32,000 nucleotides of DNA from Microcystis aeruginosa NIES-2549 (GCF_000981785.2 NZ_CP011304.1:1380001-1412000); one strand, 5' to 3'. Shown: positions 12,863 to 28,224, counted from the stretch's first letter. A program made the numbers and translations. The notes: a model not told the origin generated them from the sequence alone.

Positions 12863-13669
12863 CTAACCCACTCTGCTGATTTGTTCTAAAACCTGCCGCC
12901 ATAAACCCGAATTAGAGACGGCTAAAACTTCGCTAGAATCAGCTTTTAGGGGATTACCAGACCAATCGCTAATTATTCCGCCCGCACCTTCAATAATCGG
13001 GATTAAAGCACAAAAATCGTAGTATTTCAGGTCTGATTCTAGGATTACCATCGGCATGGCAGTGCAGCCAGTGGCTAACATCATATAGTTATAACAATCA
13101 CCCCCAAAAGCGGTACGTTTACAGACGCTTTGCAGCTGACGAGCGATCGCCTGTTGTCGTTCTGTGATAAACATTAAGGGAGTGGTGGAGGCTAAACAGG
13201 CATTTTTTAAGACAAGTTCCCGATCCTGACGATAGGGATTAACAATCATCTGGTTATTATAAAGACTGGCTTTTCCCTTCACTCCTAACCAGCGATCGCC
13301 TAAAATCGGTTGATCGACAATTCCTAAAATCGGTTGATTTTCTGCCACTAGGCCGATTAAAGTTCCAAAAATCGGCAATCCTTTGACAAAAGAGGATGTG
13401 CCATCGATCGGATCCAACACCCAATAACGACCACTTTGGGAGGGAATATTGGCTCCTTCTTCCCGAATAACCCCATCTTCGGGTAATTCTCGCTGAATAA
13501 TCGCCACCATCGCCTCCTCAGCTTCTTGATCGGCGATTGTTACTATTGAGGAAACTTGCTCGAGTTTGGTCTCGGTTTCTAGATGGGGCTGCCGAAAATA
13601 GCGCCGGATAATCTCTCCAGACGCGTCCGCTAATTGATGAGCTAGTTGGATAGTGCGATCGATATTCAT
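12863..13669 (-). CDS. Inositol monophosphatase-family phosphatase (SuhB/HisN-like)
   Basis: The metal-binding motif WVLDPIDGTSSF and the C-terminal block DFCALIPIIEGAGG, with family-typical length. ATG at 13669; the tracked start at 13672 is a TTG one codon upstream. Confidence 0.85.
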   Translation of the reverse strand: MNIDRTIQLAHQLADASGEIIRRYFRQPHLETETKLEQVSSIVTIADQEAEEAMVAIIQRELPEDGVIREEGANIPSQSGRYWVLDPIDGTSSFVKGLPIFGTLIGLVAENQPILGIVDQPILGDRWLGVKGKASLYNNQMIVNPYRQDRELVLKNACLASTTPLMFITERQQAIARQLQSVCKRTAFGGDCYNYMMLATGCTAMPMVILESDLKYYDFCALIPIIEGAGGIISDWSGNPLKADSSEVLAVSNSGLWRQVLEQISRVG

Positions 13670-14037
13670 CAATAAAAGTTATCCATACAGGAAAACAATA
13701 ATGTTTATTTATGGTAGAGGGGAGAGGGGAGAGGTGGGGGATTTAGCGTAAATTTCCCTATCACCCTAAATCTCTATTGCCTCTTGCATAGTGCGATCAA
13801 TATTCATCAATAAAAGTTATCCATACAGGAAAACAATAATGTTTATTTATGGGAAAGGGGAATTCGGGAATTGGGGGAAATTTCCCTATCACCCTAAATC
13901 TCTATTGCCTCTTGCATAGTGCGATCGATATTCATCAATAAAAGTTATCCATAGTGGAAAACAATAATGTTTATTTATGGTAAAGGGGAAGTGGGGAAGT
14001 GGGGGAAATTTGCCTATCACCCTAAATCCCTATTGCC
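13651..14037. repeat. Tandem triplication (units about 138, 128 and 121 bp) covering the first 19 nt and upstream region of the IMPase-family gene
   Basis: The anchor tagtgcgatc(g/a)atattcatcaataaaagttatccata recurs at 13651, 13789 and 13917. Each unit also carries ...aacaataatgtttatttatgg + a variable G-rich core + aaatttccctatcaccctaaatctctattgcc. Confidence 0.9.
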
Positions 14038-14154
14038 GCGTCGAAGCTAGAACTATCAGTGGGTAACAGTTTGATTTTGACTCCATAATTAAATTAGTCA
14101 ACGATCGACTCAATCTCAAGACGAGAAAAAATTAATCTATTAGGAGTTTAGCTG

Positions 14155-14550
14155 ATGACGGCTTTTACGGAAAATGACCTAAAAAGGTTAGAAAATCTGA
14201 TTATCAATGGACAAAAAGCGATCGAAACTCGTTTAACCTCTCTGGAGAATGGACAAAAAGCGATCGAAACTCGTTTAACCTCTCTGGAGAATGGACAAAA
14301 AGCGATCGAAACTCGTTTAACCTCTCTGGAGAATGGACAAAAAGCGATCGAGAATAGTGTCGGAGAGATCAAAAGAGAAATTCAGGTCTTAGAGATAGGA
14401 CAGACGGAAATTAAGGGAGAAATCAGGACTTTAGACGCAAAAATCACCGGTTTAAATGAAAGAGTGCAACTCATCGAGGCATCCGTGGGAAAAATTCCCG
14501 ATTTAGCTGAAAAAATCGGGGGGGTAAAAAACTGGATTCGGGGAAAATAA
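14155..14550 (+). CDS. Coiled-coil repeat protein (function unknown)
   Basis: GGAG lies 9 nt upstream of the ATG. Heptad-like sequence with 14-aa repeats NGQKAIETRLTSLE, then related EIKREIQVLE/TEIKGEIRTLD segments. No TM segment or recognised domain. Confidence 0.6.
   Translation: MTAFTENDLKRLENLIINGQKAIETRLTSLENGQKAIETRLTSLENGQKAIETRLTSLENGQKAIENSVGEIKREIQVLEIGQTEIKGEIRTLDAKITGLNERVQLIEASVGKIPDLAEKIGGVKNWIRGK
14206..14351 (+). repeat. Perfect 42-bp in-frame tandem repeat, 3 full copies plus 20 bp
   Basis: aatggacaaaaagcgatcgaaactcgtttaacctctctggag at 14206, 14248 and 14290, with a partial copy at 14332-14351. No mismatches seen. Confidence 0.95.
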
Positions 14551-14602
14551 AACTAGGCCATGTAACATAGTATTAAGCATTTGTATATTTTTATTAATTT
14601 TT

Positions 14603-15277
14603 ATGGAACAGACAGCTTTAAATCTGATCGCGATTACCGTTTTTTCGATCACTCTTTCCGTATTTGTCACCCCTTTGCTGTCTATTTCGCCTTTTGTCCC
14701 CGCTTTAGCTACTCTTAGCCTCTTGGGATTAGTTACCGTCGATACTCTCACCTTTAATAACCGGGGCGTGACTTTACTACTGGATGCTCTTTCTCCCAGT
14801 AAACACCGTCAAAGAGTTATTCACCACGAAGCCGGACATTTTCTCACCGCTTATATTTTGGGCATTCCGATCGCCAGTTATAGTTTGACCGCCTGGGAAG
14901 CCTTTCGTCAAGGCCAGGAGGGAGTCGGCGGCGTTCAATTTGACATAGCAGATTTAGAGCAAAAAGTCAAGAACTTTACCGATTTTCCTGCTTTTTTAGA
15001 GCGAATTTCTACGGTGTGGATGGCGGGAATTGCTGCCGAAACCTTAGTTTATGGTAAAGCGGAGGGGGGAGAAAGCGATCGATTTTATCTGCAATCGGCC
15101 TTAAAATTAGCGGGGGTTCCTGAGAATAATTATGCCCAAAAAGAGCGCTGGAGTTTATTACAGGCAAAAACTCTTTTAGAAAAACAACAGACTGCCTATC
15201 AAGCTTTAGTGATAGCTATGGAAAAAAGGGCCAGTGTGGAAGAATGCTGTCGGGTGATTAGTGAAAGTTTAGTATAA
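14603..15277 (+). CDS. Membrane-anchored M41 (FtsH-type) peptidase-domain-like protein lacking an AAA+ module
   Basis: Two N-terminal hydrophobic helices. HEAGH zinc motif (14825-14839). Downstream VWMAGIAAETLVYG...GGESD resembles the FtsH protease domain. Confidence 0.6.
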   Translation: MEQTALNLIAITVFSITLSVFVTPLLSISPFVPALATLSLLGLVTVDTLTFNNRGVTLLLDALSPSKHRQRVIHHEAGHFLTAYILGIPIASYSLTAWEAFRQGQEGVGGVQFDIADLEQKVKNFTDFPAFLERISTVWMAGIAAETLVYGKAEGGESDRFYLQSALKLAGVPENNYAQKERWSLLQAKTLLEKQQTAYQALVIAMEKRASVEECCRVISESLV

Positions 15278-15327
15278 CGGGAAAAGTAATCAGGGATAGA
15301 TTTGATAATTTCTCCGTTAAATTATTT

Positions 15328-17592
15328 ATGAATAATCAGAGCATTCAATCCGATCAGCGATTAGCTTTAATTGTGCGCGGAGCAGTACAAGGGGTCGGTT
15401 TTCGTCCTTTTGTTTATCGATTAGCAACGGAATTAAACCTAACTGGTTGGGTGAATAATACAGCAGCGGGAGTTTTTATTGAAGTCGAGGGCAATCGAGA
15501 CAAACTAGAAACTTTTTTGAATCGATTATCTTTAGAAAAACCACCTCAATCGCTAATTGAAAATATTGAGAATCAATGGTTAAATCCTATCGGTTATCAA
15601 AACTTTAGCATACGTCCTAGCAGCGGCGGTGAAAAAAATACAATTGTTCTGCCCGATTTAGCCACTTGTCCCGATTGTTTAGCCGATATTTTTGACCCTA
15701 ATAATCGTCGTTATCGCTATCCTTTTACTAACTGCACTAACTGCGGTCCTCGCTACAGTATTATCGAGAGTTTACCCTATGATCGCAGTGCCACAACTAT
15801 GAGGGATTTTAATCAGTGTCCCGAATGTCAAAGGGAATACGAAAACCCTCTGGATCGCCGTTTTCATGCCCAACCGAATGCCTGTCCTAGTTGCGGACCC
15901 CAAATTAGTCTTTTAGATAGTCAAGGCTCTGTATTAGCGGAAAAAGATCAAGCTTTAATCGCTACTGCTAGAGCAATTAAACAGGGAAAAATTATAGCGA
16001 TCAAAGGGTTAGGAGGATTTCACCTAGTTGTCGATGCAAAAAATACGGAAGCAGTGCAAAAATTGCGACAACGTAAACAGCGACCAGATAAGCCTTTTGC
16101 CGTGATGTATCCTAATCTTGAGTTAGTGAAAAACCACGGTTATGTATCTTCTTTAGAATCGCAATTATTGCAGTCTCCTGCTGCGGCAATCGTCCTGATT
16201 AAACAAAGAAAAAATTATCTTTCTCCTTCGGTTTCTCCGGGTAATCCCTATCTAGGAGTCATGTTACCCTATACTCCCCTGCATCATCTTTTATTAGCAG
16301 AATTAGGCTTTCCTATTGTAGCAACCAGTGGTAATCTAGCCGATGAACCTATCTGTATTGAGGAAAAAGAAGCTTTAGAAAAATTAGGAAAAATCGCCGA
16401 TTTATTTCTAGTTCATAATCGTCCCATAGTTCGACCAGTGGATGACTCTATTATCAGGGAAATGGCGGGAAAAGCGATGATTTTGCGCCGTGCGCGGGGA
16501 TATGCTCCCTTTCCAGTTAAAGTTAATGAGGGAGATTTTACCCCGATTCTGGCCGTGGGAAGTTATTTTAAAAATACCGTGGCTATCTACCAAAAAAATC
16601 AAGTTTTTATTAGTCAACATATCGGCGATTTAGATACGGTTAATGCTGTCAATCATTTTGAAAATATCCTCGATAGTTTAAAAAAATTATACGAGTTTGC
16701 ACCCGAAGTTATTGCCTGTGATGCTCATCCTGAATATCTAGCAACCAAGTACGCTTATAGCTTAAATTTGCCCGTTATTCCCATTCAACACCATTACGCT
16801 CACGTTTTATCCTGCATGGCAGAACATCAGCTACAACCTCCAGTTTTAGGGGTTGCTTGGGATGGAACAGGATACGGTTTAGACGGCACAATTTGGGGGG
16901 GAGAATTTATCCATATTGCTGCCGATTCTTGGCAGCGCGTCGCCCATTTTAAACCCTGGCCATTACCCGGAGGAGAAAAAGCAGTTAAAGAACCCAGACG
17001 AGTAGCTTTAGGATTACTAGAAGTTATGGAAAATACTGATAGGATAAAATCAGCTTTTAGTGAACAGGAATGGTCTATTTTTAGGCAAATGTTAACCAGA
17101 AAAATTAATTGTCCTTTAACTTCTAGTGTCGGACGTTTGTTTGATGGTGTGGCGGCGATTCTAGGTTTATGTTATCAATTAAGTTTTGAGGGACAGGGAG
17201 CAATGCAGTTAGAATTTGCCCTTGAAGGCATTAAAACGGAAGAATATTATCATTTTTCTTTATCCGCCGACTCCCCCATAGTTATTGATTGGAATCAGAT
17301 AATTTTAGGAGTTGTTGAAGATTTAGAAAAACCAGTACAAATCGGCATAATTGCCGCTAAATTTCATAATAGTTTAAGTGAGATTATTGTAGAAATTGCT
17401 CACCAAATAGGTAGAGAAAAAATTCTCCTGACGGGAGGCTGTTTTCAAAATCGTTATCTAACGGAAAGAACAATTAATCGCCTACAAGCTTCGGGATTTC
17501 AACCCTACTGGCAGCAAACTGTCCCCACTAATGATGGTGGTATTAGCCTTGGTCAAATTATCGGGGCTTTTTCTGAACTTAAACGGTTCTAG
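15328..17592 (+). CDS. hypF: [NiFe]-hydrogenase maturation carbamoyltransferase HypF
   Basis: Acylphosphatase domain (VRGAVQGVGFRPFVYRLA). Two CxxC-X18-CxxC zinc fingers (CPDCLADI...CTNCGPRYSI; CPECQREY...CPSCGP). YrdC-like and Kae1-like C-terminal domains. 754 aa. Confidence 0.95.
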   Translation: MNNQSIQSDQRLALIVRGAVQGVGFRPFVYRLATELNLTGWVNNTAAGVFIEVEGNRDKLETFLNRLSLEKPPQSLIENIENQWLNPIGYQNFSIRPSSGGEKNTIVLPDLATCPDCLADIFDPNNRRYRYPFTNCTNCGPRYSIIESLPYDRSATTMRDFNQCPECQREYENPLDRRFHAQPNACPSCGPQISLLDSQGSVLAEKDQALIATARAIKQGKIIAIKGLGGFHLVVDAKNTEAVQKLRQRKQRPDKPFAVMYPNLELVKNHGYVSSLESQLLQSPAAAIVLIKQRKNYLSPSVSPGNPYLGVMLPYTPLHHLLLAELGFPIVATSGNLADEPICIEEKEALEKLGKIADLFLVHNRPIVRPVDDSIIREMAGKAMILRRARGYAPFPVKVNEGDFTPILAVGSYFKNTVAIYQKNQVFISQHIGDLDTVNAVNHFENILDSLKKLYEFAPEVIACDAHPEYLATKYAYSLNLPVIPIQHHYAHVLSCMAEHQLQPPVLGVAWDGTGYGLDGTIWGGEFIHIAADSWQRVAHFKPWPLPGGEKAVKEPRRVALGLLEVMENTDRIKSAFSEQEWSIFRQMLTRKINCPLTSSVGRLFDGVAAILGLCYQLSFEGQGAMQLEFALEGIKTEEYYHFSLSADSPIVIDWNQIILGVVEDLEKPVQIGIIAAKFHNSLSEIIVEIAHQIGREKILLTGGCFQNRYLTERTINRLQASGFQPYWQQTVPTNDGGISLGQIIGAFSELKRF

Positions 17593-17622
17593 ATAGGATA
17601 AAATTAACTTCTTGGTTAGGAT

Positions 17623-17655
17623 AGGCAAGAGGCAAGAGGCAAGAGGTAAGAGGTA
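17623..17655. repeat. Heptamer tandem array, (AGGCAAG)x3, AGGTAAG and a partial unit
   Basis: aggcaag aggcaag aggcaag aggtaag aggta, read directly just downstream of the hypF stop. Confidence 0.8.
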
Positions 17656-17716
17656 TTTATAAGCGTTAAAGATAAACCACAGAGACACGAAGAACACAGA
17701 GAGAGCCGATTTTTTT

Positions 17717-18010
17717 CTAGAATGTTAAACGATGCCACTCGACGATTTTATTGCCTACTTTCAAAATAATTGCTTGACCTAAACCCAGTTCTTGTGTCAC
17801 ATTAACTAGATGGGCAAAATTTTGACGGGTGATTGCTAGTCCCTGCAAACAGGCTAGAAAATCGAGACAGAGAACCGTAGAAAATTCCCAGGTTTGTCGG
17901 TAAACACGGCAATTATCCGGTAAAAAAGCCACAAGAGTGCGAAAATGACTCAAAGCGGCTTTCTCAAAATTGGCGCTAGTGCAGTCAAAAGACGAGTGCT
18001 GATAGCTCAT
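17717..18010 (-). CDS. Hypothetical protein (orphan ORF)
   Basis: 97-codon ATG ORF in an otherwise gene-free gap. No motif recognised and no obvious Shine-Dalgarno site seen. Coding status uncertain. Confidence 0.4.
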   Translation of the reverse strand: MSYQHSSFDCTSANFEKAALSHFRTLVAFLPDNCRVYRQTWEFSTVLCLDFLACLQGLAITRQNFAHLVNVTQELGLGQAIILKVGNKIVEWHRLTF

Positions 18011-18375
18011 AAAAACTTTGCCTGATAGAGAAAGAGCAGGGTTTCCCTCAGACTAGCACCTCGCTTCTGGGGATCACGTTCCCTTTAGAATTTCTCAATA
18101 GACTGGCAAATCCCCCCAGAGGGGTATCCTTACCCGCGAGCAAATCGCTAGAAGCTAGGTTTCTTCCCGGAGATGGTGTACTTTAGATATTGATGTCCTT
18201 CCGGCTGGCAAGATAACCCGCAAATTTCCCCACTCGTCCCCAGCGATAAAAGGCTGTATTTAGTCAAAAATCAAGTGTTGACTTTGATGCAAAACTTGCC
18301 AAGTAAAAAATGATGACAGCCTCAAGTTGCCGCTTAACTACTTGACTAATTAACTGATAACTGGTAACTAAAATT

Positions 18376-20106
18376 ATGAATAATGCAATTGTCAAACCGA
18401 GAGATGTACAAGTAGCACCGATAGCCGCCGATACTTTTGTCTTTCGTTCCCGCACTTGGGACCGGTTAAAATTCGAGATCGAATACGGATTACAAAAGGG
18501 AACCACCGCCAATAGTTATCTGATTAAAGGTGAAAAGGTCGCTCTTTTTGATCCACCGGGAGAATCATTCTCGGATATATTTTTAGAGGCTTTAACTAAA
18601 AGAATCGATCCGAAAACTATTGATTATATTATCCTCGGTCACGTTAACCCCAATCGTGCCGTCACCCTCAAGGCACTTTTAGAAATCGCTCCTCAAGTCA
18701 CTTTTGTTTGTTCTAATCCGGGGGCAATTTCCCTGACAAAAATTCTCGAAACCGAAGCATTAAATCTGTTCGTTGTCAAGGGGGAAGAAATATTAAATTT
18801 AGGAGCAAATCATCAATTAGAATTTATCCCCACTCCTAACCCCAGATTTCCCGATCAACTCTGTACCTACGACAGCAAAACTGATATTCTCTACACCGAT
18901 AAATTATTCGGAGCGCACGTTTGTGGCGACCAAATTTTTGATGAGGGTTGGAGCGTTTATAACGAAGATCGGCGTTATTATTTTGATTGTCTCATGGCTC
19001 CCTATGCCAGCCAAATTAGCAACGCTTTGGAGAAATTAGCCGCTAAATCGCCCTTATTTTATGCTGTTGGTCACGGTCCGTTGGTGCGTTACGCGATGCA
19101 CGAATTGACCCTTTCCTATCAACAATGGTTAGCAGTACAAAAGTCCCAAGAGTTGACAATCGCCCTGATTTATGCTAGTGCCTACGGCAACACCGCCACC
19201 CTCGCTCAAGCGATCGCCATGGGGATCACGAAAGCGGCAGTAGCAGTCACGGCGATTAATGCCGAGTTCGCTGAACCAGACGAGATCAAAACGGCGATCG
19301 AAAAAAGTGTCGGTTTTATCTTTGGTTCCCCCACTTTGGGAGGACACGCACCGACTCCCATCCAAACCGCCTTGGGGATTACCCTGTCCAATGGCGATAA
19401 AAGCAAGCTGGTGGGGGTTTTTGGCTCCTACGGTTGGAGTGGGGAAGCGATCGATCTTTTGGAAGGTAAATTCCGGGATGGCGGTTATCGCTTCGGTTTT
19501 GAGCCAATTCGGGTTAAATTTAAGCCCACAGAGGCAGTTTTAAAGACCTGTGAGGAAGCGGGAACCGATTTCGCTCAAGCAGTCAAAAAAGCTCGCAAAA
19601 GCAGACAACCGAAAACTAATGTTAACCAATCCCAAAGCGATCGGCGATCGCAGTCCCTGGGACGTTTGGTGGGTTCTCTCTGTATCGTCACCTGCGAATT
19701 GGGGGAATTGCGCGGCGCCATGTTAGCCTCTTGGGTGTCGCAAGCGACGTTCACACCCCCCGGATTGACTATTGCCGTGGCGAAAGAACGAGCGATCGAG
19801 TCTCTGCTTTATAGCGGTACGCCTTTTGTCCTTAATATCCTCCAAGAAGGTCAACATTTGGCTTTAATGAAGCATTTTCTTAAACCTTTTTCCCCCGGAG
19901 AAGATCGTTTTGCTCATATCGAAACCACTAAAGCTGAAAACGGTGGGCCGATTCTGGCCGAAGCGCTCGCTTATCTGGAATGTCGGGTAGAACAACGAAT
20001 GGAGTGTGGTGATCATTGGCTGATTTATGCGATCGCAGAAAAAGGCAGGGTTTTACACCAGGGTTTAACCGCCATCCATCATCGCAAATCTGGCAGTTAT
20101 TATTAA
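18376..20106 (+). CDS. Flavodiiron protein (class C: metallo-beta-lactamase-like + flavodoxin-like + flavin-reductase-like domains), FlvA (Flv1/Flv2)-type
   Basis: Three-domain order is visible: N-terminal beta-lactamase-like fold, flavodoxin-like LIYASAYGNTATLAQAIA...FGSPTLGGH, and a C-terminal flavin-reductase-like domain. The diiron-ligand position reads HVNPNR instead of HxExDH. Confidence 0.9.
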   Translation: MNNAIVKPRDVQVAPIAADTFVFRSRTWDRLKFEIEYGLQKGTTANSYLIKGEKVALFDPPGESFSDIFLEALTKRIDPKTIDYIILGHVNPNRAVTLKALLEIAPQVTFVCSNPGAISLTKILETEALNLFVVKGEEILNLGANHQLEFIPTPNPRFPDQLCTYDSKTDILYTDKLFGAHVCGDQIFDEGWSVYNEDRRYYFDCLMAPYASQISNALEKLAAKSPLFYAVGHGPLVRYAMHELTLSYQQWLAVQKSQELTIALIYASAYGNTATLAQAIAMGITKAAVAVTAINAEFAEPDEIKTAIEKSVGFIFGSPTLGGHAPTPIQTALGITLSNGDKSKLVGVFGSYGWSGEAIDLLEGKFRDGGYRFGFEPIRVKFKPTEAVLKTCEEAGTDFAQAVKKARKSRQPKTNVNQSQSDRRSQSLGRLVGSLCIVTCELGELRGAMLASWVSQATFTPPGLTIAVAKERAIESLLYSGTPFVLNILQEGQHLALMKHFLKPFSPGEDRFAHIETTKAENGGPILAEALAYLECRVEQRMECGDHWLIYAIAEKGRVLHQGLTAIHHRKSGSYY

Positions 20107-20229
20107 CTCATGGTGACGGGCAAGGGATCGCAAAAAACAAGGGTTTCGGCTGATCCCGAAAGTGAACAATACTCTCCCCTATCCTTCTGCTACTGTTTGT
20201 AAAACAAGATCAATAAATTTCTGGCTGTA

Positions 20230-20661
20230 TTATATGCCTTGTTGTTGCATCGTTTCTATGTAAGGTTTGACTGCAGCGATCTTTCCCAACTGTTTTGCTT
20301 TAATTAAAATACCGATCGAACCTGTAATTGGAATATTGAGAGATTTACATACCTGACGAGCAGCTAATTCATCGATAAGCACTAAAGAGGCTTTTTGTTC
20401 TAGTGCAAGGACGATGACTTCTGATTCTCCTCGATCCAGAGTCGGTAATAGTAAGGAAACCTGCTGTTGAGAGGCGATTTCTCGGACAGAAATCCACTGT
20501 TCTCGTAATAGATCGATCGAGCCAGTTTTGTCTTGATCGTAAGTGCTGATTTCAAGAGCTACCGCCTTAGGAATAATGATGCTTTTAACTATTTCTTGTA
20601 AAAGACCGAGTTGACCAATTCGCGCAAAAGCGATGAGGGGAGTAGCGTTACTTACAATCAT
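20230..20661 (-). CDS. PIN-like (DUF3368-type) toxin
   Basis: MIVSNATPLIAFARIGQLGLLQEI... and the acidic residues (D/E...LIDE) are typical of DUF3368 PIN-fold proteins. It overlaps the upstream antitoxin gene by 14 nt. Confidence 0.8.
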   Translation of the reverse strand: MIVSNATPLIAFARIGQLGLLQEIVKSIIIPKAVALEISTYDQDKTGSIDLLREQWISVREIASQQQVSLLLPTLDRGESEVIVLALEQKASLVLIDELAARQVCKSLNIPITGSIGILIKAKQLGKIAAVKPYIETMQQQGI

Positions 20662-20932
20662 CAGGCTCCAGTTTTTCTATTCCCTTTAATTCAACCGCTA
20701 ACGCCGATTCGTCATAATCAAACAATACAATCCCTTTTTTAGACAAAATATCCATAAATTCTAGGCGATTAATTCTCGCTAATTCCGCCGCTTTTCCTAA
20801 AGAAAGTCGCTTTTCTTGAAAATAATAAATAGCGGCCAGAAGTTTAATTTCTTGACCGAGTTCATCAATTCCTATTTTTAAAGCGGCAAGAACATCGGGA
20901 GAAAATTCTAGATTTAATATTTCATTTTTCAT
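20648..20932 (-). CDS. UPF0175-family antitoxin
   Basis: LSLGKAAELARINRLEFMDILSKKGI is the hallmark HTH block of UPF0175. Small size and 5' position in the bicistron. Confidence 0.8.
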   Translation of the reverse strand: MKNEILNLEFSPDVLAALKIGIDELGQEIKLLAAIYYFQEKRLSLGKAAELARINRLEFMDILSKKGIVLFDYDESALAVELKGIEKLEPDDCK

Positions 20933-21266
20933 TCTAAGTACCTAGTTAAAAATAAAGTTAACTTTAGAGACAAGGGAACTCCGGAACAGGGAACAGAAGG
21001 GTTTCTGACTTTTTTTAAGATGCCTCTTAATTATTACAGCTTACAGCGTTTGTCATAAAGATGAAGTATAATCTGATTTGGCATCGTCTCCTGACTCCTG
21101 ATTGAGGTGATTAAACCGCACAGTGCGCTATTATAGCAGAGGGCAGAAGGCAGAAGGAAAATCCTTGCCAGAACTGAATTTTAGCGATTTAGGTTGTCCT
21201 AACCAACTCGTTCTCTGCTATAAGTCTTATTAAGGGGGTGTTAGACCGATGCAGGTGAGATAGTGG

Positions 21267-21388
21267 CAGCAATTCTCATTTTGAAACGATTTTGCGTTGT
21301 TTCAGCGATCTAGAGATTCGTTAAGAATTATTAACCCCTCTAGGTGCAAGGGTTTTAATGTCATGAAACCTTAAAATGAGAATTGCTG
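21267..21388. mobile_element. MITE-like mini-element / long hairpin (16-bp perfect inverted termini)
   Basis: cagcaattctcatttt (21267-21282) pairs with aaaatgagaattgctg (21373-21388). The termini resemble those of the 25460-25735 element (ggcTGCAtCTCATTTTtG vs ggcaGCAatTCTCATTTTG). Confidence 0.5.
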
Positions 21389-21429
21389 GAGGATAATACC
21401 TCCCATCGACTCTACCCACTTTATATCCA

Positions 21430-21712
21430 TTTTGTCCTTAATATCCTCCAAGAAGGTCAACATTTGGCTTTAATGAAGCATTTTCTTAAACCTTTTTCCC
21501 CCGGGGAAGACCGTTTTGCTCATATCGAAACCACTAAAGCTGAGAACGGTGGGCCGATTCTGGCCGAAGCGCTCGCTTATCTGGAATGTCGGGTAGAACA
21601 ACGAATGGAGTGCGGTGATCATTGGCTGCTTTATGCGATCGCAGAAAAAGGTAAGGTTTTACACCAGGGTTTAACCGCCATCCATCATCGCAAATCTGGC
21701 AGTTATTATTAA
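21430..21712 (+). pseudogene. Displaced duplicate of the 3' end (last 94 codons) of the flavodiiron gene
   Basis: Aligns base for base with 19824-20106, with 7 substitutions by hand alignment, and includes the same stop codon. It lacks the rest of the gene. The tracked ORF start (21383, TTG) lies in unrelated sequence. Confidence 0.9.
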
Positions 21713-21787
21713 TTTGTCGTTATGATCATTTCAGGGGGTGTTTTCAGGCAGGATAACCCACCCTGATTGGTCTAAAAATATATTCTT

Positions 21788-24700
21788 ATGAAAAGTATTG
21801 TTTTAATTGTTGGCTTTGAAACCTTTAACAGGAATTTGTATCGGCAATCGGGCCTGTTGGCCAGTTCTAAATGTCCCGATTTAGAAGTAAAAGTATTTAG
21901 CGATAAATCCTTGACTAGCGAACCGGAAATAGTCGAGCAAGCTTTAGCCACTGCCGACGTTTTTTTTGCTAGTTTGATCTTCGATTACGATCAAGTTACT
22001 TGGCTGCGGCAACGAGCGGCACAGATTCCGATTCGCTTAGTTTTTGAGTCTGCTTTAGAGTTAATGAGTTTAACCCGTTTGGGAGAATTTGCCATCGGGG
22101 ATAAACCAAAAGGAATGCCAAAACCAATTCAATTTATCTTGAGTAAATTTTCCAGTGGCAAGGAAGAAGATAAGTTAGCTGGTTATCTTAGTTTCCTCAA
22201 AACAGGTCCGAAACTACTGAAATTTATTCCCGCTAAAAAAGTTCAAGATTTGCGTAATTGGTTAATTATCTACGGTTATTGGAATGCGGGAGGAACCGAA
22301 AATGTTGCCGCTATGTGTTGGGTAATTGCCCAAAAATATCTAGGATTAAAAGTACAGGAAATACCCGAAGTTATTGAAACTCCTAATAAGGGACTATTAC
22401 ACCCCGATTATCAGGGTTATTTTCTCACTCCCCAAGAATATTTGACTTGGTATCAAAAAAATAAATCCCTTGATAAACCAGTGGTGGCACTGCTGCTTTA
22501 TCGGAAGCACGTTATCAGTAAATTGCCCTATATTAATCAATTAATCCGTCATTTTGAAACGGCTAATTTAATTCCCCTACCCGTGTTTATTAACGGAGTA
22601 GAAGGCCATACAATTGTTCGGGATTGGTTAACCACAGACTACGAAATTCAGCAAAGAAAAAAAGGAATCATTGAAACTCCTTCTTTAAGTCAAGATGCGG
22701 TGACAGTAGATGCAATTGTTTCGACGATTGGCTTTCCTTTGGTGGGGGGTCCCGCGGGTTCTATGGAAGCAGGAAGACAGGTAGAAGTGGCTAAACGAAT
22801 TCTGTCCGCTAAAAATATTCCTTATCTTATCGCTGCCCCTTTATTAATTCAAGATATTTATTCTTGGACAAGACAGGGAATCGGTGGTTTACAGAGTGTG
22901 GTTTTATACGCTTTACCAGAATTAGACGGGGCAATTGATACAATTCCTCTGGGGGGATTAGTCGGGGAAACTATCTATTTAATCCCCGAAAGATTACAGC
23001 GTTTAACTGGACGTTTAAATAGTTGGATTAAGTTACATAAAACCCCTCCGCAAGAACGCAAAATAGCCATCATTCTTTATGGATTTCCCCCGGGTTATGG
23101 GGCAGTTGGTACGGCAGCTTTATTAAATGTTCCCCGGAGTTTAGTTAAGTTTTTACAAGCTTTGCAAGCGCAGGGTTATAATGTGGGAACAATTCCCGAA
23201 GACGGGGAAGAAATTATTCAAAAAGTTAAATTTGCCGATGATGAAAATCTCTCTAAACAAAATCGTTTATCGATAGAAACTTTAGAAAATTGGCTAGGTT
23301 ATCTGTTAACTTCTCGCATTGAAAAACACTGGAAATCTCTGAAAGATGCGGGGATAAAAACCATTGGCGACCAGTATCATTTAGGGGGAATTGAGTTAGG
23401 TAATATCTGGATTGGAGTGCAGCCACCTTTAGGCATTGCTGGGGATCCGATGCGGTTAATGTTTGAAAAAGATTTAACTCCTCACCCTCAGTATGCAGCC
23501 TTTTATCAGTGGTTACAAAAAGATTTTAAGACCGATGCTATCGTTCATTTTGGTATGCACGGAACTGTCGAATGGCTGCCCGGTTCACCCCTAGGAAATA
23601 CTGGTTATTCTTGGTCAGATATTTTATTAGGAGATTTACCGAATTTATATATTTATGCCGCTAATAATCCCTCGGAATCTATCTTAGCTAAACGTCGCGG
23701 TTATGGGGTGTTAATTTCCCATAATGTGCCTCCCTACGGACGAGCGGGATTATATAAAGAATTGATGATTTTACGAGATTTGATTGCCGAGTTTCGAGAA
23801 AATCCTGAGAAAAATTACGCTTTAAGAGATAGTATTCTTCAAAAGATTATTGATACAGGTATCTCTAAAGATTGTCCTTTTCTGGAAGCAGAAAAACAGG
23901 GAATAGAATTCACTTTAGAAAATGCCAAATTATTTAGCCGCTATGCACTAACCGATTATTTTGTCAAGGTGTATAATTACTTACAAATCGTCGAACAAAG
24001 ACTATTTTCTTCGGGTTTACACACCCTAGGAACTGCTCCCAACCAGGAAGAATTAAAAGGTTATCTTGATGCTTATTTTACCGATTTATCTGAGCGAGAA
24101 TTTCAGCAAATTATCGCTGACGAAGCAACCAATGAAAAGCTTAAAGAAGGCATTGCTATTAAAAATTTATTAGGACAAAATAGCGAAGAATTAACTAATC
24201 TTTTGCGGGGATTAAATGGGGAATATGTACCACCGGCACCGGGGGGTGATTTACTCCGGGATGGTGCGGGAGTTTTACCCACAGGACGCAATATACACGC
24301 TTTGGATCCCTACCGGATGCCTTCCCCCGCAGCCTACACTCGCGGACGAGAAATCGCCAAAAAACTGCTAGAACAAAACTTAACCGAAAAAGGAAAATAT
24401 CCCGAAACTGTAGCAGTTTTACTCTGGGGATTAGATGTGATTAAAACTAAGGGTGAATCCCTGGGTATTCTCCTAGAATTAGTCGGTGCGGAACCAGTGA
24501 AAGAGGGAACGGGAAGAATTGTCAGATATGAATTAAAACCTTTAGGGGAAATTGGACACCCGCGCATCGATATTTTGGCTAATTTATCGGGAATTTTTCG
24601 CGATACTTTTATCAATATTATCGAGTTATTGGATGATTTAATGCAGCGGGCAGCCGAGATAGAAGAATCGGAAAATGATAATTATATCCGTAAGCACTAT

Positions 24701-25453
24701 TTAGCCTTAAAAAGTCAAGGGATTGACAATGCCAGCGCTCGTTTATTTTCCAATCCTGCTGGGGATTTTGGCTCTTTAGTTAATGACCAAGTAGTGGAGG
24801 GAAATTGGGACAATGACAACGAATTAGCGAAAACTTGGGAAAAGCGTAATGTTTTTAGTTATGGTCGTCAAGATAAGGGACAAGCGCGGCCAGAAGTGCT
24901 ACAACAGTTATTAAAAACCAGTGAAAGTATTATCCAAGAAATTGACTCGGTAGAATACGGTTTAACCGATATTCAGGAATACTACGGCAACACGGGAGGA
25001 TTAAAATTAGCCGCAGAAAAACAAAGCGGTAAACGGGTGATGACGAGTTTTGTCGAGAGTTTTTCCAATGATACAACTCCCCGCAAATTAGAGGAGGTTT
25101 TGCGCTTAGAATACCGCAGTAAATTACTCAATCCTAAATGGGCTAATGCCATGGTTAATCAAGGTTCCGGTGGGGCCTACGAAATCTCCCAAAGAATGAC
25201 CGCTTTAATTGGTTGGGGCGGTACGGCTAATTTTAGTGACGATTGGGTGTATGATCAGGCAGCCGATACCTACGCTTTTGATGCAGAAATGGCGGAAAAA
25301 TTGCGTCAAGCTAATCCCGAAGCTTTCCGTAATATTGTCGGTAGAATGTTAGAAGCACAGGGTCGCGGTTTTTGGCAAGCAGACCCCGACAAATTAGAGA
25401 AATTACAGGAATTATATCAATTGACCGATGAAAAGTTAGAAGGGGTTACTTAG
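21788..25453 (+). CDS. Magnesium-chelatase H-subunit family protein (ChlH/BchH-like paralogue; CobN superfamily), 1221 aa
   Basis: N-terminus resembles ChlH rather than CobN (IVGFETFNRNLYRQ...VFFASLIFDYD). Core block VHFGMHGTVEWLPG...PNLYIYAANNPSESILAKRRGYG matches the ChlH-type AANNPSE signature as I recall it. It is shorter than canonical ChlH (about 1330 aa). Confidence 0.75.
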   Translation: MKSIVLIVGFETFNRNLYRQSGLLASSKCPDLEVKVFSDKSLTSEPEIVEQALATADVFFASLIFDYDQVTWLRQRAAQIPIRLVFESALELMSLTRLGEFAIGDKPKGMPKPIQFILSKFSSGKEEDKLAGYLSFLKTGPKLLKFIPAKKVQDLRNWLIIYGYWNAGGTENVAAMCWVIAQKYLGLKVQEIPEVIETPNKGLLHPDYQGYFLTPQEYLTWYQKNKSLDKPVVALLLYRKHVISKLPYINQLIRHFETANLIPLPVFINGVEGHTIVRDWLTTDYEIQQRKKGIIETPSLSQDAVTVDAIVSTIGFPLVGGPAGSMEAGRQVEVAKRILSAKNIPYLIAAPLLIQDIYSWTRQGIGGLQSVVLYALPELDGAIDTIPLGGLVGETIYLIPERLQRLTGRLNSWIKLHKTPPQERKIAIILYGFPPGYGAVGTAALLNVPRSLVKFLQALQAQGYNVGTIPEDGEEIIQKVKFADDENLSKQNRLSIETLENWLGYLLTSRIEKHWKSLKDAGIKTIGDQYHLGGIELGNIWIGVQPPLGIAGDPMRLMFEKDLTPHPQYAAFYQWLQKDFKTDAIVHFGMHGTVEWLPGSPLGNTGYSWSDILLGDLPNLYIYAANNPSESILAKRRGYGVLISHNVPPYGRAGLYKELMILRDLIAEFRENPEKNYALRDSILQKIIDTGISKDCPFLEAEKQGIEFTLENAKLFSRYALTDYFVKVYNYLQIVEQRLFSSGLHTLGTAPNQEELKGYLDAYFTDLSEREFQQIIADEATNEKLKEGIAIKNLLGQNSEELTNLLRGLNGEYVPPAPGGDLLRDGAGVLPTGRNIHALDPYRMPSPAAYTRGREIAKKLLEQNLTEKGKYPETVAVLLWGLDVIKTKGESLGILLELVGAEPVKEGTGRIVRYELKPLGEIGHPRIDILANLSGIFRDTFINIIELLDDLMQRAAEIEESENDNYIRKHYLALKSQGIDNASARLFSNPAGDFGSLVNDQVVEGNWDNDNELAKTWEKRNVFSYGRQDKGQARPEVLQQLLKTSESIIQEIDSVEYGLTDIQEYYGNTGGLKLAAEKQSGKRVMTSFVESFSNDTTPRKLEEVLRLEYRSKLLNPKWANAMVNQGSGGAYEISQRMTALIGWGGTANFSDDWVYDQAADTYAFDAEMAEKLRQANPEAFRNIVGRMLEAQGRGFWQADPDKLEKLQELYQLTDEKLEGVT

Positions 25454-25459
25454 GGTTTT

Positions 25460-25735
25460 TAGGCTGCATCTCATTTTTGTCAATCTACCAAGTTGGGATT
25501 TTTACGGGGACACTCTCGGCTAAAATCGGTCATTACTTCCGATTTTACCACTCAATCCAAGCCTTTGGGGGGTTCTACCCCCCAAACCCCCCGTTGGGGG
25601 GTAGAACCCCCCAAACCCCCCGCGCATTAGTTTTTCGGTGGGATGCTTACACGCAGCCGCTGACCCATCTGTAATAATTTAAGAGTCACTGATAATTGCT
25701 GATTGTCGGTATTTCTGCAAATGTGAGATGCACCC
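25460..25735. mobile_element. MITE (about 276 bp) with imperfect terminal inverted repeats and a 7-bp target-site duplication
   Basis: Terminal inverted repeats ggctgcatctcatttttg (25462-25479) and caaatgtgagatgcaccc (25718-25735) match at 15/18 positions. GGGTTTT flanks both ends (25453-25459, 25736-25742). No credible ORF. GC-rich palindromic core. Confidence 0.65.
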
Positions 25736-26514: not shown

Positions 26515-28224
26515 TCAAAATAAGAAATAGCGTTGGGCCATAGGTAAAACCGTAGCCGGTTCACAGATTAATAATTCCCCGTCAGCACGCACCTCGTAGG
26601 TTTCGGGATTAACTTCCATGCGCGGTAAAGCGTCATTTAGCTTCATACTAGCCTTACTGATATTGCGCGTATTCGACACTGCCACGGCGGTTTTTTTCAG
26701 CTTTAACTTCTCAGGAATGCCCGCTTTCATAGCATATTTAGAAACAAATGTCAAGGAAGTTTTGGCGATCGCACCACCAAAAGAGGCAAACATGGGACGC
26801 ATATAAACCGGTTGGGGTGTGGGAATACTGGCATTAGCATCGCCCATTTGCGCCCAGGCGATTAAACCGCCTTTCAGGACAATTTCCGGTTTTACGCCAA
26901 AAAATGCCGGTTTCCAGAGAACCAAATCGGCTAATTTGCCCACCTCGATGGAACCGACATAATCGGAGACACCATGGGTAATAGCAGGATTAATCGTATA
27001 TTTAGCAATATATCGTCTTGCCCGCAGATTATCATTCTCTCCCGTTTCCCCGGTCAGTCTGCCCCGTTGTAACCGCATTTTGTGGGCAGTTTGCCAAGTG
27101 CGGATAATTACTTCCCCCACCCGTCCCATCGCTTGAGAATCGGAGGAAATGATGCTAAAAGCCCCTAAATCGTGGAGAATATCCTCGGCGGCAATAGTCT
27201 CTCGGCGGATGCGGGATTCGGCAAAGGCCACATCTTCGGGAATACTCCGGTCTAAATGATGACAAACCATCAACATATCAAGGTGTTCCTCTAAGGTATT
27301 CGTCGTATAGGGACGGGTGGGATTAGTAGAGGAGGGTAAAACGTTCATTTCCCCGCAAACCCTGATAATATCGGGAGCATGACCACCGCCGGCCCCTTCC
27401 GTGTGGTAGGTGTGAATGACGCGATTTTTAAAAGCGGCGATAGTGGCCTCAACAAAACCGGCCTCATTGAGAGTATCGGTATGAATCGCCACCTGCACAT
27501 CGTACTTATCGGCCACGCTTAAACAGGTATCAATGGCTGCCGGAGTGGTTCCCCAATCTTCATGGAGTTTTAAGCCAATTACCCCCGCTTTTACCTGTTC
27601 CGCTAGTCCTTCCGGCTGACTGCTATTGCCTTTACCCAAAAAACCCAAATTCATCGGGAAAGCTTCGGCCGCCTCTAGCATTCGATAGATGTTCCATTCT
27701 CCCGGGGTGCAGGTGGTGGCATTAGTTCCCGTCGCAGGTCCAGTCCCGCCACCAATCATCGTGGTAATCCCCGACGCAATCGCTGTCTCAATTTGTTGGG
27801 GACAGATAAAATGAATATGAGCATCAATCCCCCCTGCTGTCAAAATCATCCCCTCCCCGGCTAATGCCTCGGTAGCAGGACCGATAATAATATCGACATT
27901 ATCTTGAATGTGGGGATTACCCGCTTTACCGATTTTATAAATTTTGCCGTCTTTAATGCCCACATCGGCCTTAACGATGCCCCACCAGTCGAGAATTAAG
28001 GCATTAGTAATCACTAGATCCACCGCCCCATCTTCCCTAGAAATGGGGGATTGGCCCATCCCATCGCGAATTACTTTACCGCCGCCGAATTTTACCTCAT
28101 CGCCGTAGGTGGTGAAATCTTTTTCGACTTCGATAAATAATTCCGTGTCTGCGAGGCGAACTTTATCTCCGACGGTGGGGCCGTAGGTTTCTGCATAGGT
28201 GCGGCGATCGATGCGATAATTCAT
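26515..28224 (-). CDS. ureC: Urease alpha subunit
   Basis: [56 protein letters not shown], and a 569-aa length are canonical UreC features. Confidence 0.97.

Follow-up and report, generated by a model that had tools for sequence, protein, structure and literature searches.

Prophage e14 and phage 21 insert in the 3' part of the Escherichia coli icd gene, bring a substitute 3' end of their target gene with them and leave the old end behind as a pseudogene, the two ends differing mainly at synonymous sites. Homology-facilitated illegitimate recombination, in which one homologous anchor is combined with one illegitimate join and no site-specific recombinase takes part, has been described in natural transformation of Acinetobacter, Streptococcus pneumoniae and Pseudomonas stutzeri. 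Within Microcystis, toxin-antitoxin (TA) cassettes are already known as strain-variable, repeat-flanked inserts: in M. aeruginosa PCC 7806, a ParE/ParD-like TA module lies downstream of the orthocaspase gene MaOC1 and is flanked by identical 152-bp direct repeats (PMC7935541). Here we describe a locus of M. aeruginosa NIES-2549 that can be compared with each of these systems. It is part of a 32,000-nucleotide stretch of the genome (GCF_000981785.2, NZ_CP011304.1:1380001-1412000), hereafter the window, whose positions are used throughout, and it consists of a UPF0175/DUF3368 TA cassette lying between the flavodiiron gene flv and a second copy of the flv 3' end. Labels beginning with L denote the loci and contigs with which the window was compared.

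The locus resembles e14 and phage 21 at icd in that an insertion in the 3' part of a gene comes with an alternative 3' end, leaves the old end as a putative pseudogene and yields two ends that differ mainly at synonymous sites. It differs from them in having no integrase, in its size of 1.3 kb, in the group II intron end at its right junction and in its apparent mode of transfer, which is recombination between homologous flanks. Like the MaOC1 module, the cassette follows directly on a chromosomal gene, is bounded by direct repeats and occurs in some strains only; the MaOC1 repeats differ in being non-coding borders with internal inverted repeats and not a duplicated gene end, and that module belongs to another TA family (PMC7935541). 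We put at roughly 60% the reading that the window carries one allele of an old insertion polymorphism of single origin, which was spread by recombination, in which the second flv copy is a pseudogene and whose founding event involved an illegitimate join. The locus is a real, well-resolved and essentially ordinary structural polymorphism for which current understanding stands, and the intron end at the junction is the one feature that could prove unusual. Its interest lies in being a well-bounded example of how a small selfish cassette could become a strain-variable locus through one illegitimate event, followed by spread and loss through recombination, with no dedicated recombinase.

Occupied and empty alleles of the flv-chlH locus

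In the window, the last 283 nt of flv (copy A) are repeated in direct orientation (copy B) on the far side of a 1323-bp insert, just upstream of a gene resembling chlH:

18376..20106, plus strand: intact flavodiiron gene flv, 576 amino acids (aa), with a C-terminal flavin-reductase domain (open reading frame [ORF] call; Pfam ODP/Lactamase_B, Flavodoxin_1 and Flavin_Reduct)
19824..20106, plus strand: repeat copy A, the last 283 nt of functional flv, through TAA (repeat finder and base-by-base comparison)
20107..21429, unstranded: strain-variable insert, 1323 bp, holding the TA operon, a non-coding stretch, a miniature inverted-repeat transposable element (MITE), an intron remnant and a 14-nt exon-like piece (locus comparison)
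21430..21712, plus strand: repeat copy B, a displaced, putatively non-functional flv 3' fragment comprising codons 483-576 and the stop (repeat finder and base-by-base comparison)
21713..21787, plus strand: spacer of 75 bp, the same sequence that follows the single flv stop at empty sites (locus comparison)
21788..25453, plus strand: ChlH/BchH-like magnesium chelatase H gene, 1221 aa (TIGR02025; Pfam CobN-Mg_chel and DUF3479)

Copies A and B form the single strong direct-repeat family that the repeat finder returned for 17000-24000 (283 nt, ungapped, 98% identity), and base-by-base comparison gave exactly seven mismatches. Five of these are synonymous third-position changes (19899, 19905, 19938, 20007 and 20046), and two are nonsynonymous, namely ATT>CTT at 20023 (I550L) and AGG>AAG at 20048 (R558K). 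In both copies the homology starts with TTTTGTCC and ends precisely at the TAA stop, after which copy A runs into CTCATGG and copy B into TTTGTCG. A first-pass annotation, made from the window's sequence alone, had described ungapped 283-bp repeats with a shared stop and these same seven differences, a PIN/UPF0175 TA module between the copies and a ChlH-like gene downstream of copy B; direct comparison, the gene families and the TIGR02025 match (1516 bits against a cutoff of 829) confirmed all three. The window Flv is 97-98% identical to its Microcystis orthologues, the next best matches being from Pannus and Chroococcopsis (78-80%), and an exact-protein lookup gave no record for it.

The cassette is a presence/absence polymorphism within Microcystis, neither an artefact nor a strain-specific event, because the insert is present in about 30 Microcystis loci from independent assemblies, several of them complete chromosomes, and absent from 10, with constant junctions. 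Through the window antitoxin and a second antitoxin variant we reached 20 distinct occupied contexts, all with the order hypF-flv-TA-orphan fragment-chlH-moaC, and the occupied locus was also found in seven metagenome contigs and in one Microcystis metagenome-assembled genome (MAG; L002). The left junction, TAA followed by CTCATGGTGACGG, and the right junction, CCACTTTATATCCA followed by TTTTGTCC, are the same in occupied loci wherever they are covered, apart from a deletion in L084, an N gap in L136, a string in L140 that was not exactly matched, and contig ends. Since identical junctions recur across many independent assemblies, including complete genomes, an assembly artefact is ruled out, and the misassembly considered at first pass is not the case.

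Relatives with an empty site and a spacer of about 75 bp, as the first-pass annotation had envisaged, were found at 10 loci, comprising L003 (M. aeruginosa NIES-4325) and nine loci reached via a neighbouring 97-aa ORF. The empty allele consists of the flv stop, the 75-bp spacer and the chlH-like gene. Its flv stop is TAG in six of the 10 cases, as in the outgroup Pannus, and the stop is TAA in every A and B copy. Given that the TAG-ending empty alleles differ from both copies in this codon, they are not simple products of a deletion between A and B, and the insert was probably never present in them.

The 283-nt repeats disrupt short-read assembly at this locus, where L136 contains N gaps and the contigs of L001 and L105 break off, and a seeming loss of copy B in L136 proved to be the N gap in the scaffold. 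In L123 (VYLR01000399.1), A and B both seem truncated at one and the same internal point, after ...TGGCTGCTT; an error of assembly or a deletion passed on by conversion may account for this, and the contig, which is metagenome-assembled, was excluded from the evidence. The 75-bp spacer between flv and chlH (21713-21787 in the window) is a hot spot for small insertions, seen in L003, L083, L084, L095, L097, L099 and L102. That of L003 is an element of about 250 bp related to window 25532-25691, the same insertion sequence starts in L083 and L084, and L095, L097, L099 and L102 carry a different element with GGGTGTAGGGTGT repeats.

Spread of the insert and probable recombination at copy B

Diversity was calculated pairwise among 12 occupied alleles, by segment:

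flv 5' part, 2.11%; chlH 5' part, 2.04%
TA genes, 0.59%; non-coding insert, 1.00%; MITE, 1.62%

Flank diversity was alike in the occupied, empty and pooled sets (2.07-2.11%), and synonymous diversity of the flv end was about 9-10%. On these figures the flanks appear to coalesce several times further back than the insert, which nevertheless occurs on diverse backgrounds. Low insert diversity on diverse flanks suggests that the insertion arose once, and that it subsequently spread between strains by homologous recombination. In such a process, flv and chlH would act as the arms through which the cassette is gained, and probably also lost, by ordinary homologous recombination, and an integrase would be unnecessary for its transfer between strains.

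The nearest empty-site relative, L100 (CP012375.1), which we take to be M. aeruginosa NIES-2481, is a complete 4.29-Mb chromosome with 99.87% identity to the window in the left flank and 99.89% in the right flank. Pairwise genome comparison between the two delimits a single tract:

19238..21832, unstranded: putative recombination tract of the window relative to L100

On either side of it, window and L100 have zero mismatches over 14030-19237 and 21833-25617, bar one 1-nt indel at 22955. The tract (2.6 kb) covers the last 870 nt of flv including copy A, the insert, copy B, the spacer and the first 45 nt of chlH. The clade of the window contains five distinct empty relatives and two occupied members, the window and L094, and gain of the cassette in the window/L094 lineage is more parsimonious than its loss in L100 and the other empty relatives. 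The indel at window-equivalent 22955 is a 1-nt deletion in the chlH-like gene of L100, where no chlH gene is called, and this gene is probably a frameshifted pseudogene in that strain. Farther upstream, an internally repetitive intergenic region at about 13650-14250 shows indels and many substitutions relative to the otherwise near-identical L100, L094 and L095.

The first-pass annotation had read the seven differences between A and B as those of two functional alleles, one from an incoming donor and one resident, with the I-to-L and R-to-K changes as part of that evidence, and had taken the second copy not to be decaying. Neither point held up on comparison between strains. The insertion appears to be old and is shared between strains, with A, insert, B and spacer of the window all inside one tract, and in a table of variable sites drawn from 13 A copies, 13 B copies and 10 single copies, I550L (20023) and R558K (20048) segregate alike in all three classes. 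The rare N-to-H change at 19915 is present in both copies of the window and of L094 as well as in single-copy genes from their clade, the L-to-I change at 19858 that is typical of B also occurs in copy A of L083 and L084, and A and B of L089 differ at only three sites. The first 75 nt of window B are identical to window A, whereas L094 B has the canonical haplotype there (9 differences in 47 nt); this part of window B appears to have been recently overwritten by A-type sequence.

Diversity among B copies is about 4.5% (12.8 differences per 283 nt), against 1.0% in the adjacent non-coding insert, so most B variation would not be mutational since the insertion, having been imported either from copy A by gene conversion or from single-copy alleles by exchange through B, the spacer and chlH. 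The differences between A and B would then look allele-like because recombination repeatedly brings functional-gene sequence into B. This calls for caution elsewhere, as mostly synonymous differences between a gene and its fragment can come from gene conversion and allelic exchange and need not reflect the origin of the duplication. An origin of B in a very divergent lineage was not supported, the distance from B to the nearest A or single copy being 3-13 nt, within the range among A and single copies (maximum 17).

From its structure in several strains we infer that copy B is a pseudogene fragment. It has an in-frame stop codon in L108 and is split in L114, at the equivalent of window 21463-21467, by a 1088-bp IS630-family element encoding a 332-aa DDE_3 transposase; in L084, 44 nt upstream of B are deleted. 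Several strains also have radical replacements private to B (L to R, P to R, P to L, E to G and S to F). It is very improbable that B has instead been retained by selection, as a small flavin-reductase-like protein (109-aa ORF, 21383-21712) or as the promoter or 5' region of the chlH-like gene. Of 18 translated full-length B copies, 17 are free of indels and stops, the pairwise ratio of nonsynonymous to synonymous polymorphism (pN/pS) in B is just 0.15, and gene callers give Flavin_Reduct ORFs of 79-110 aa at B, all of which would fit a selected protein. The low pN/pS is, however, accounted for by imported functional-allele sequence, given that B is so much more diverse than the adjacent insert, and the stop, IS630 insertion and upstream loss just described speak against a selected function. 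The fragment moreover spans just positions 47-138 of the 153-position flavin-reductase profile (Pfam), its ORF start varies by strain to give 79, 98, 109 or 110 aa, and a promoter scan found no plus-strand promoter-like site within B.

The right junction and a proposed founding event

Three small features make up the right end of the insert:

21267..21388, unstranded: MITE, 122 bp, with perfect 16-nt terminal inverted repeats (inverted-repeat search)
21389..21415, plus strand: domain VI 3' end of a mobile group II intron, 27 nt (homology to longer remnants and full-length copies)
21416..21429, plus strand: 14-nt exon-like piece CCACTTTATATCCA, bordering the putative illegitimate junction at 21429/21430 (likeness to 3' exons of other intron copies)

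The hairpin that had been described as MITE-like, 41 bp from the right junction, is a genuine MITE at that position. Its right end lies 41 nt from copy B, and copies with 96-99% identity occur in unrelated flanks on Microcystis NIES-2481 and FD4 plasmids. No further copy was found among the 128 loci examined, and no clear target-site duplication is visible in the MITE flanks at three aligned sites.

The group II intron remnant next to the MITE was missed at first pass. Rfam gave no match on the window insert, where the 27 nt are too short to detect. Longer pieces occur elsewhere, 154 nt in L002, L086 and L089 and at least 449 nt in L105, and the homologous place there matches RF00029 (domain V/VI) with 48.4 bits in L002 and 52 bits in L105, against 61 bits for the full-length L125. 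The 27-nt state of the window results from one of several nested deletions in the stretch from the MITE to the junction. Full-length copies encoding a reverse transcriptase (RT)-maturase-HNH protein match the remnant at 97-99% identity; these relatives, found in a metagenome scan with domain VI as query, are 2.1-2.35 kb long and have RVT_N, RVT_1, GIIM and HNH domains. The contig of L105 (VYLM01000085.1) starts inside the intron, and its stretch of at least 449 nt, which includes the HNH-coding part and is 99.4% identical to full-length copies, abuts the same 14 nt and copy B. None of the intron's coding sequence remains in the window.

The MITE's right end is precisely where intron homology begins; the sequence left of the MITE has no match to the intron, and neither the intron 5' end (GUGYG) nor domains I-IV were found at the locus. 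Given where the homology begins, the 5' part of the intron would have been lost by a deletion adjacent to the MITE, and the longer stretch in L105 indicates that the intron was once longer here, and probably once complete. The locus matches RT-maturase-HNH group II introns and their 5'-deleted remnants in RF00029 domain V/VI and in the domains of its full-length relatives, and differs from full group II introns in keeping the 3' 27-154 nt (at least 449 nt in L105), with the 5' part lost next to the MITE. The 3' exons of other intron copies (CCACCTTATCTAAT, CCACCTTATTTAGG or CCATCCTATTTTCG) resemble the 14-nt piece, which argues that the illegitimate junction lies 14 nt into intron-exon-like sequence.

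This intron family is apparently active in Microcystis (contigs L109, L112, L125, L111, L104, L119 and L106). Copies at two different sites, one that of L109/L112 and the other that of L125, have about 34 nt of upstream flank in common, GCCGATCTTGTAGGGTGCGTTAATGAAATGTAAAG, and most copies have a CCAYYTTAT-like 3' exon start, which suggests that the introns home into a repeated target; L112 has 186 extra nt within the intron. An insertion of the intron directly in flv, with B as its 3' exon, was considered because the 14-nt piece is in frame with B (P-L-Y-I-H-F-V) and because flv has CTGCTTTATA in the place of the exon-like CCACTTTATA. It was set aside, as the 5' side in flv is unlike the 34-nt flank of L109/L112 and L125, and the other 3' exons already account for the CCAYYTTAT motif.

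All occupied alleles share both boundaries, which points to one founding event, and since the homology between A and B ends at the stop, the boundary between A and the insert would be the native gene end of the donor and not a recombination joint. For this event we tentatively favour, at slightly less than even odds, a one-sided homologous and one-sided illegitimate recombination of the natural-transformation type, between a flv-TA-...-intron donor and a flv-spacer-chlH recipient. The donor DNA would have carried flv, then the TA cassette, then the group II intron; a short similar patch would have guided its illegitimate joining to a point 283 nt within the flv gene of the flv-spacer-chlH chromosome, and the other side would have been resolved by a homologous crossover in flv. 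Such an event would leave flv intact, strand its old end as copy B and create a sole novel joint, at 21429/21430. The 40 nt upstream of A and of B do share a patch, ATCGAGTCT--CTGCTTTATA against ATCGACTCTACCCACTTTATA, with 16 matches in 21 alignment columns (local alignment, p = 0.0066, 5000 shuffles). The earlier proposal that an incoming flv 3' end with its TA module displaced the resident end survives as the best model of the founding event, and the seven differences, on which it had been built, are no evidence for that event. Homology-facilitated illegitimate recombination likewise combines one homologous anchor (here flv) with one illegitimate join and has no site-specific recombinase; here, however, the patch is offset, the donor arrangement is hypothetical and the recipient shows a duplication instead of the usual deletion. 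A tandem duplication followed by an insertion exactly at its joint was rejected, as two independent stop-codon coincidences would be needed.

Several points weigh against the reading that we prefer, both for the founding event and for what followed. The patch stops short of the switch point, by 4 nt on the B side and by 10 nt on the A side, and is not classic junctional microhomology, and both of its halves are independently explained as intron and intron-exon-like sequence. The donor arrangement, flv-TA-intron without B, was not found in any collection searched and is hypothetical. With regard to decay of copy B, private variants have a nonsynonymous to synonymous ratio of about 9:5 in B and 2:5 in A and single copies (hand reading of variant tables), an excess that is not statistically significant at these numbers. 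The polarity of gain versus loss in the window clade is a matter of parsimony within that one clade, two occupied against five empty, and since the outgroups have no hypF-flv-chlH gene order in our locus comparison, the ancestral state is not polarisable beyond Microcystis.

The insert could instead be an eroded integrase-type element that carried a substitute flv 3' end in its attachment (att) site, integrated site-specifically at codon 483 and was afterwards stripped of its integrase and most other genes. The element-borne 3' end would restore the ORF through the stop and leave the displaced original end on the far side, the 283-nt direct repeats fit attL and attR made of the target end and the element's copy, and mobile elements typically carry TA modules, group II introns and MITEs as cargo or passengers. 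We consider this origin unlikely, as an integrase, excisionase or other element gene was found in none of the roughly 30 occupied alleles, no integrase or recombinase is called in their 5-kb flanks and no integrase lies within about 8 kb to either side at any related locus, in line with the earlier observation that no integrase is present. The insert is also small, 1.3-1.45 kb, or about 3.05 kb where it contains an IS605-family element; searches of viral contigs, with the toxin and with intron domain V among the queries, and of phage records gave no match to the cassette, and plasmids match the MITE alone. Its right end is the 3' end of an intron plus intron-exon-like sequence, with no recognisable att core. 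The architecture works like a target-gene-restoring insertion, but it lacks the recombinase, the other element genes and the free form of an integrative element.

Direct repeats equal to the shared homology would also result from a Campbell-type single crossover with a circle of about 1.6 kb, made up of 283 nt of the flv end and the cassette. This is quite unlikely: the flv fragment would have to end exactly at the stop on one side and the circle 14 nt past the intron end on the other, an earlier illegitimate event would still be required to build it, and no such circle, plasmid or excised form was found in the viral, phage and plasmid collections.

The position of the junction, 14 nt into intron-exon-like sequence, could also mean that the intron machinery itself made it. 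An unspliced read-through transcript, running from the flv end through antisense TA sequence and the intron to the start of the 3' exon, could have been reverse-transcribed and then integrated in flv, or the HNH nick in the 3' exon could have been misrepaired. The bottom-strand nick that intron endonucleases make falls at about +9/+10, not far from the junction, the RT-maturase-HNH family is apparently active in Microcystis, with several copies 97-99% identical to one another, and the long L105 stretch beside B is nearly identical to full-length copies. Nevertheless, +14 differs from +9/+10, flv upstream of the junction is unlike the conserved 5' flank of the intron's usual sites, no exact exon-binding sites that pair with the usual or the flv flank were found in the intron, and a poly-A-like or template-switch signature is not visible at the junction. 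We know of no bacterial precedent for a duplication made by intron machinery and regard this origin as decidedly unlikely; if true, it would be a bacterial counterpart of transduction or retro-duplication of the long interspersed nuclear element (LINE) type and would account for a junction 14 nt past the intron.

Outside Microcystis, a Coleofasciculus sp. MAG (L031, 4820-5590) has an unrelated DUF3368/UPF0175 pair, its toxin 34% identical, in convergent orientation 13 nt past the orthologous flv stop and with no duplication. This may be a coincidence, or else insertions may favour the region downstream of flv.

The toxin-antitoxin operon and a neighbouring gene

The TA operon lies on the minus strand, convergent to flv:

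20648..20932, minus strand: UPF0175 antitoxin gene, 94 aa, upstream of the toxin gene (Pfam UPF0175, E = 2.5e-22)
20179..20661, minus strand: DUF3368 toxin gene, predicted PIN fold, ancestral frame 160 aa, here 143 aa (Pfam; read-through translation against relatives)
20144..20161, minus strand: predicted terminator-like hairpin just past the ancestral toxin stop (consensus scan)

The antitoxin gene comes first and overlaps the co-oriented toxin gene by 14 nt. As called, the window toxin ORF spans 20230-20661 on the minus strand and matches DUF3368 with E = 1e-9, against 1.3e-12 for a full-length relative, and its match to Pfam PIN is below threshold (E = 0.021). An AlphaFold2 model of a full-length relative has a predicted local distance difference test (pLDDT) score of 93.8, and its top Foldseek matches in the PDB are VapC4 (5h4g; template modelling [TM] score 0.60-0.65, probability 1.0), HARP RNase P and M. 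tuberculosis VapCs, all with E of about 2e-3 or weaker; the model thus predicts a PIN nuclease fold. Residues E37, D76, E79, D97, E98 and E159 are invariant in 31 toxin homologues, and the family has Asn5 where classic PIN domains have their first catalytic Asp. By gene order, family signatures and predicted fold, the cassette is assigned to the PIN-like/UPF0175 type II TA class. It is like type II pairs of PIN (COG2405/DUF3368) and UPF0175 (COG2886) proteins in its small overlapping genes, with the antitoxin first, and in its VapC-type predicted fold, and differs from them in a window toxin without the last 17 residues and in Asn5 replacing the first catalytic Asp.

The truncation of the window toxin was missed at first pass. 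A nonsense TAA at 20230-20232 replaces Tyr144 and leaves 143 of 160 aa, beyond which the reading frame stays open for another 16 codons, up to the ancestral stop at 20179-20181; toxin relatives are 159-160 aa long. The lost tail of 17 residues includes the invariant F149 and E159. An independent Logan contig (L001, DRR783855), which matches the window at 100% identity over 20077-21199, encodes the same 143-aa toxin, and this recurrence of the nonsense codon in a separate read set excludes a sequencing error. The module is probably decaying in the window genome, because its toxin is truncated. Other strains have different, independent toxin lesions: in L090, L091, L113 and L116, an IS605-family element (Y1 transposase and TnpB) inserted between toxin and flv leaves a toxin of 154 aa, and in L108, L133 and L134 the toxin is cut early, to 25 aa. 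The antitoxin is intact in all of these, and the identical antitoxin protein occurs on 612 contigs, all of them Microcystis where the source names the organism. Recurrent toxin lesions next to a perfectly conserved antitoxin are the typical picture of TA decay.

Elsewhere in the window, the Rfam family of the Helicobacter 5' ureB small RNA (sRNA) matches 27783-28069 on the plus strand with 125.6 bits, antisense to a 569-aa ORF at 26515-28224. This ORF is probably the urease alpha subunit, and the score most likely reflects conserved coding sequence, not an sRNA.

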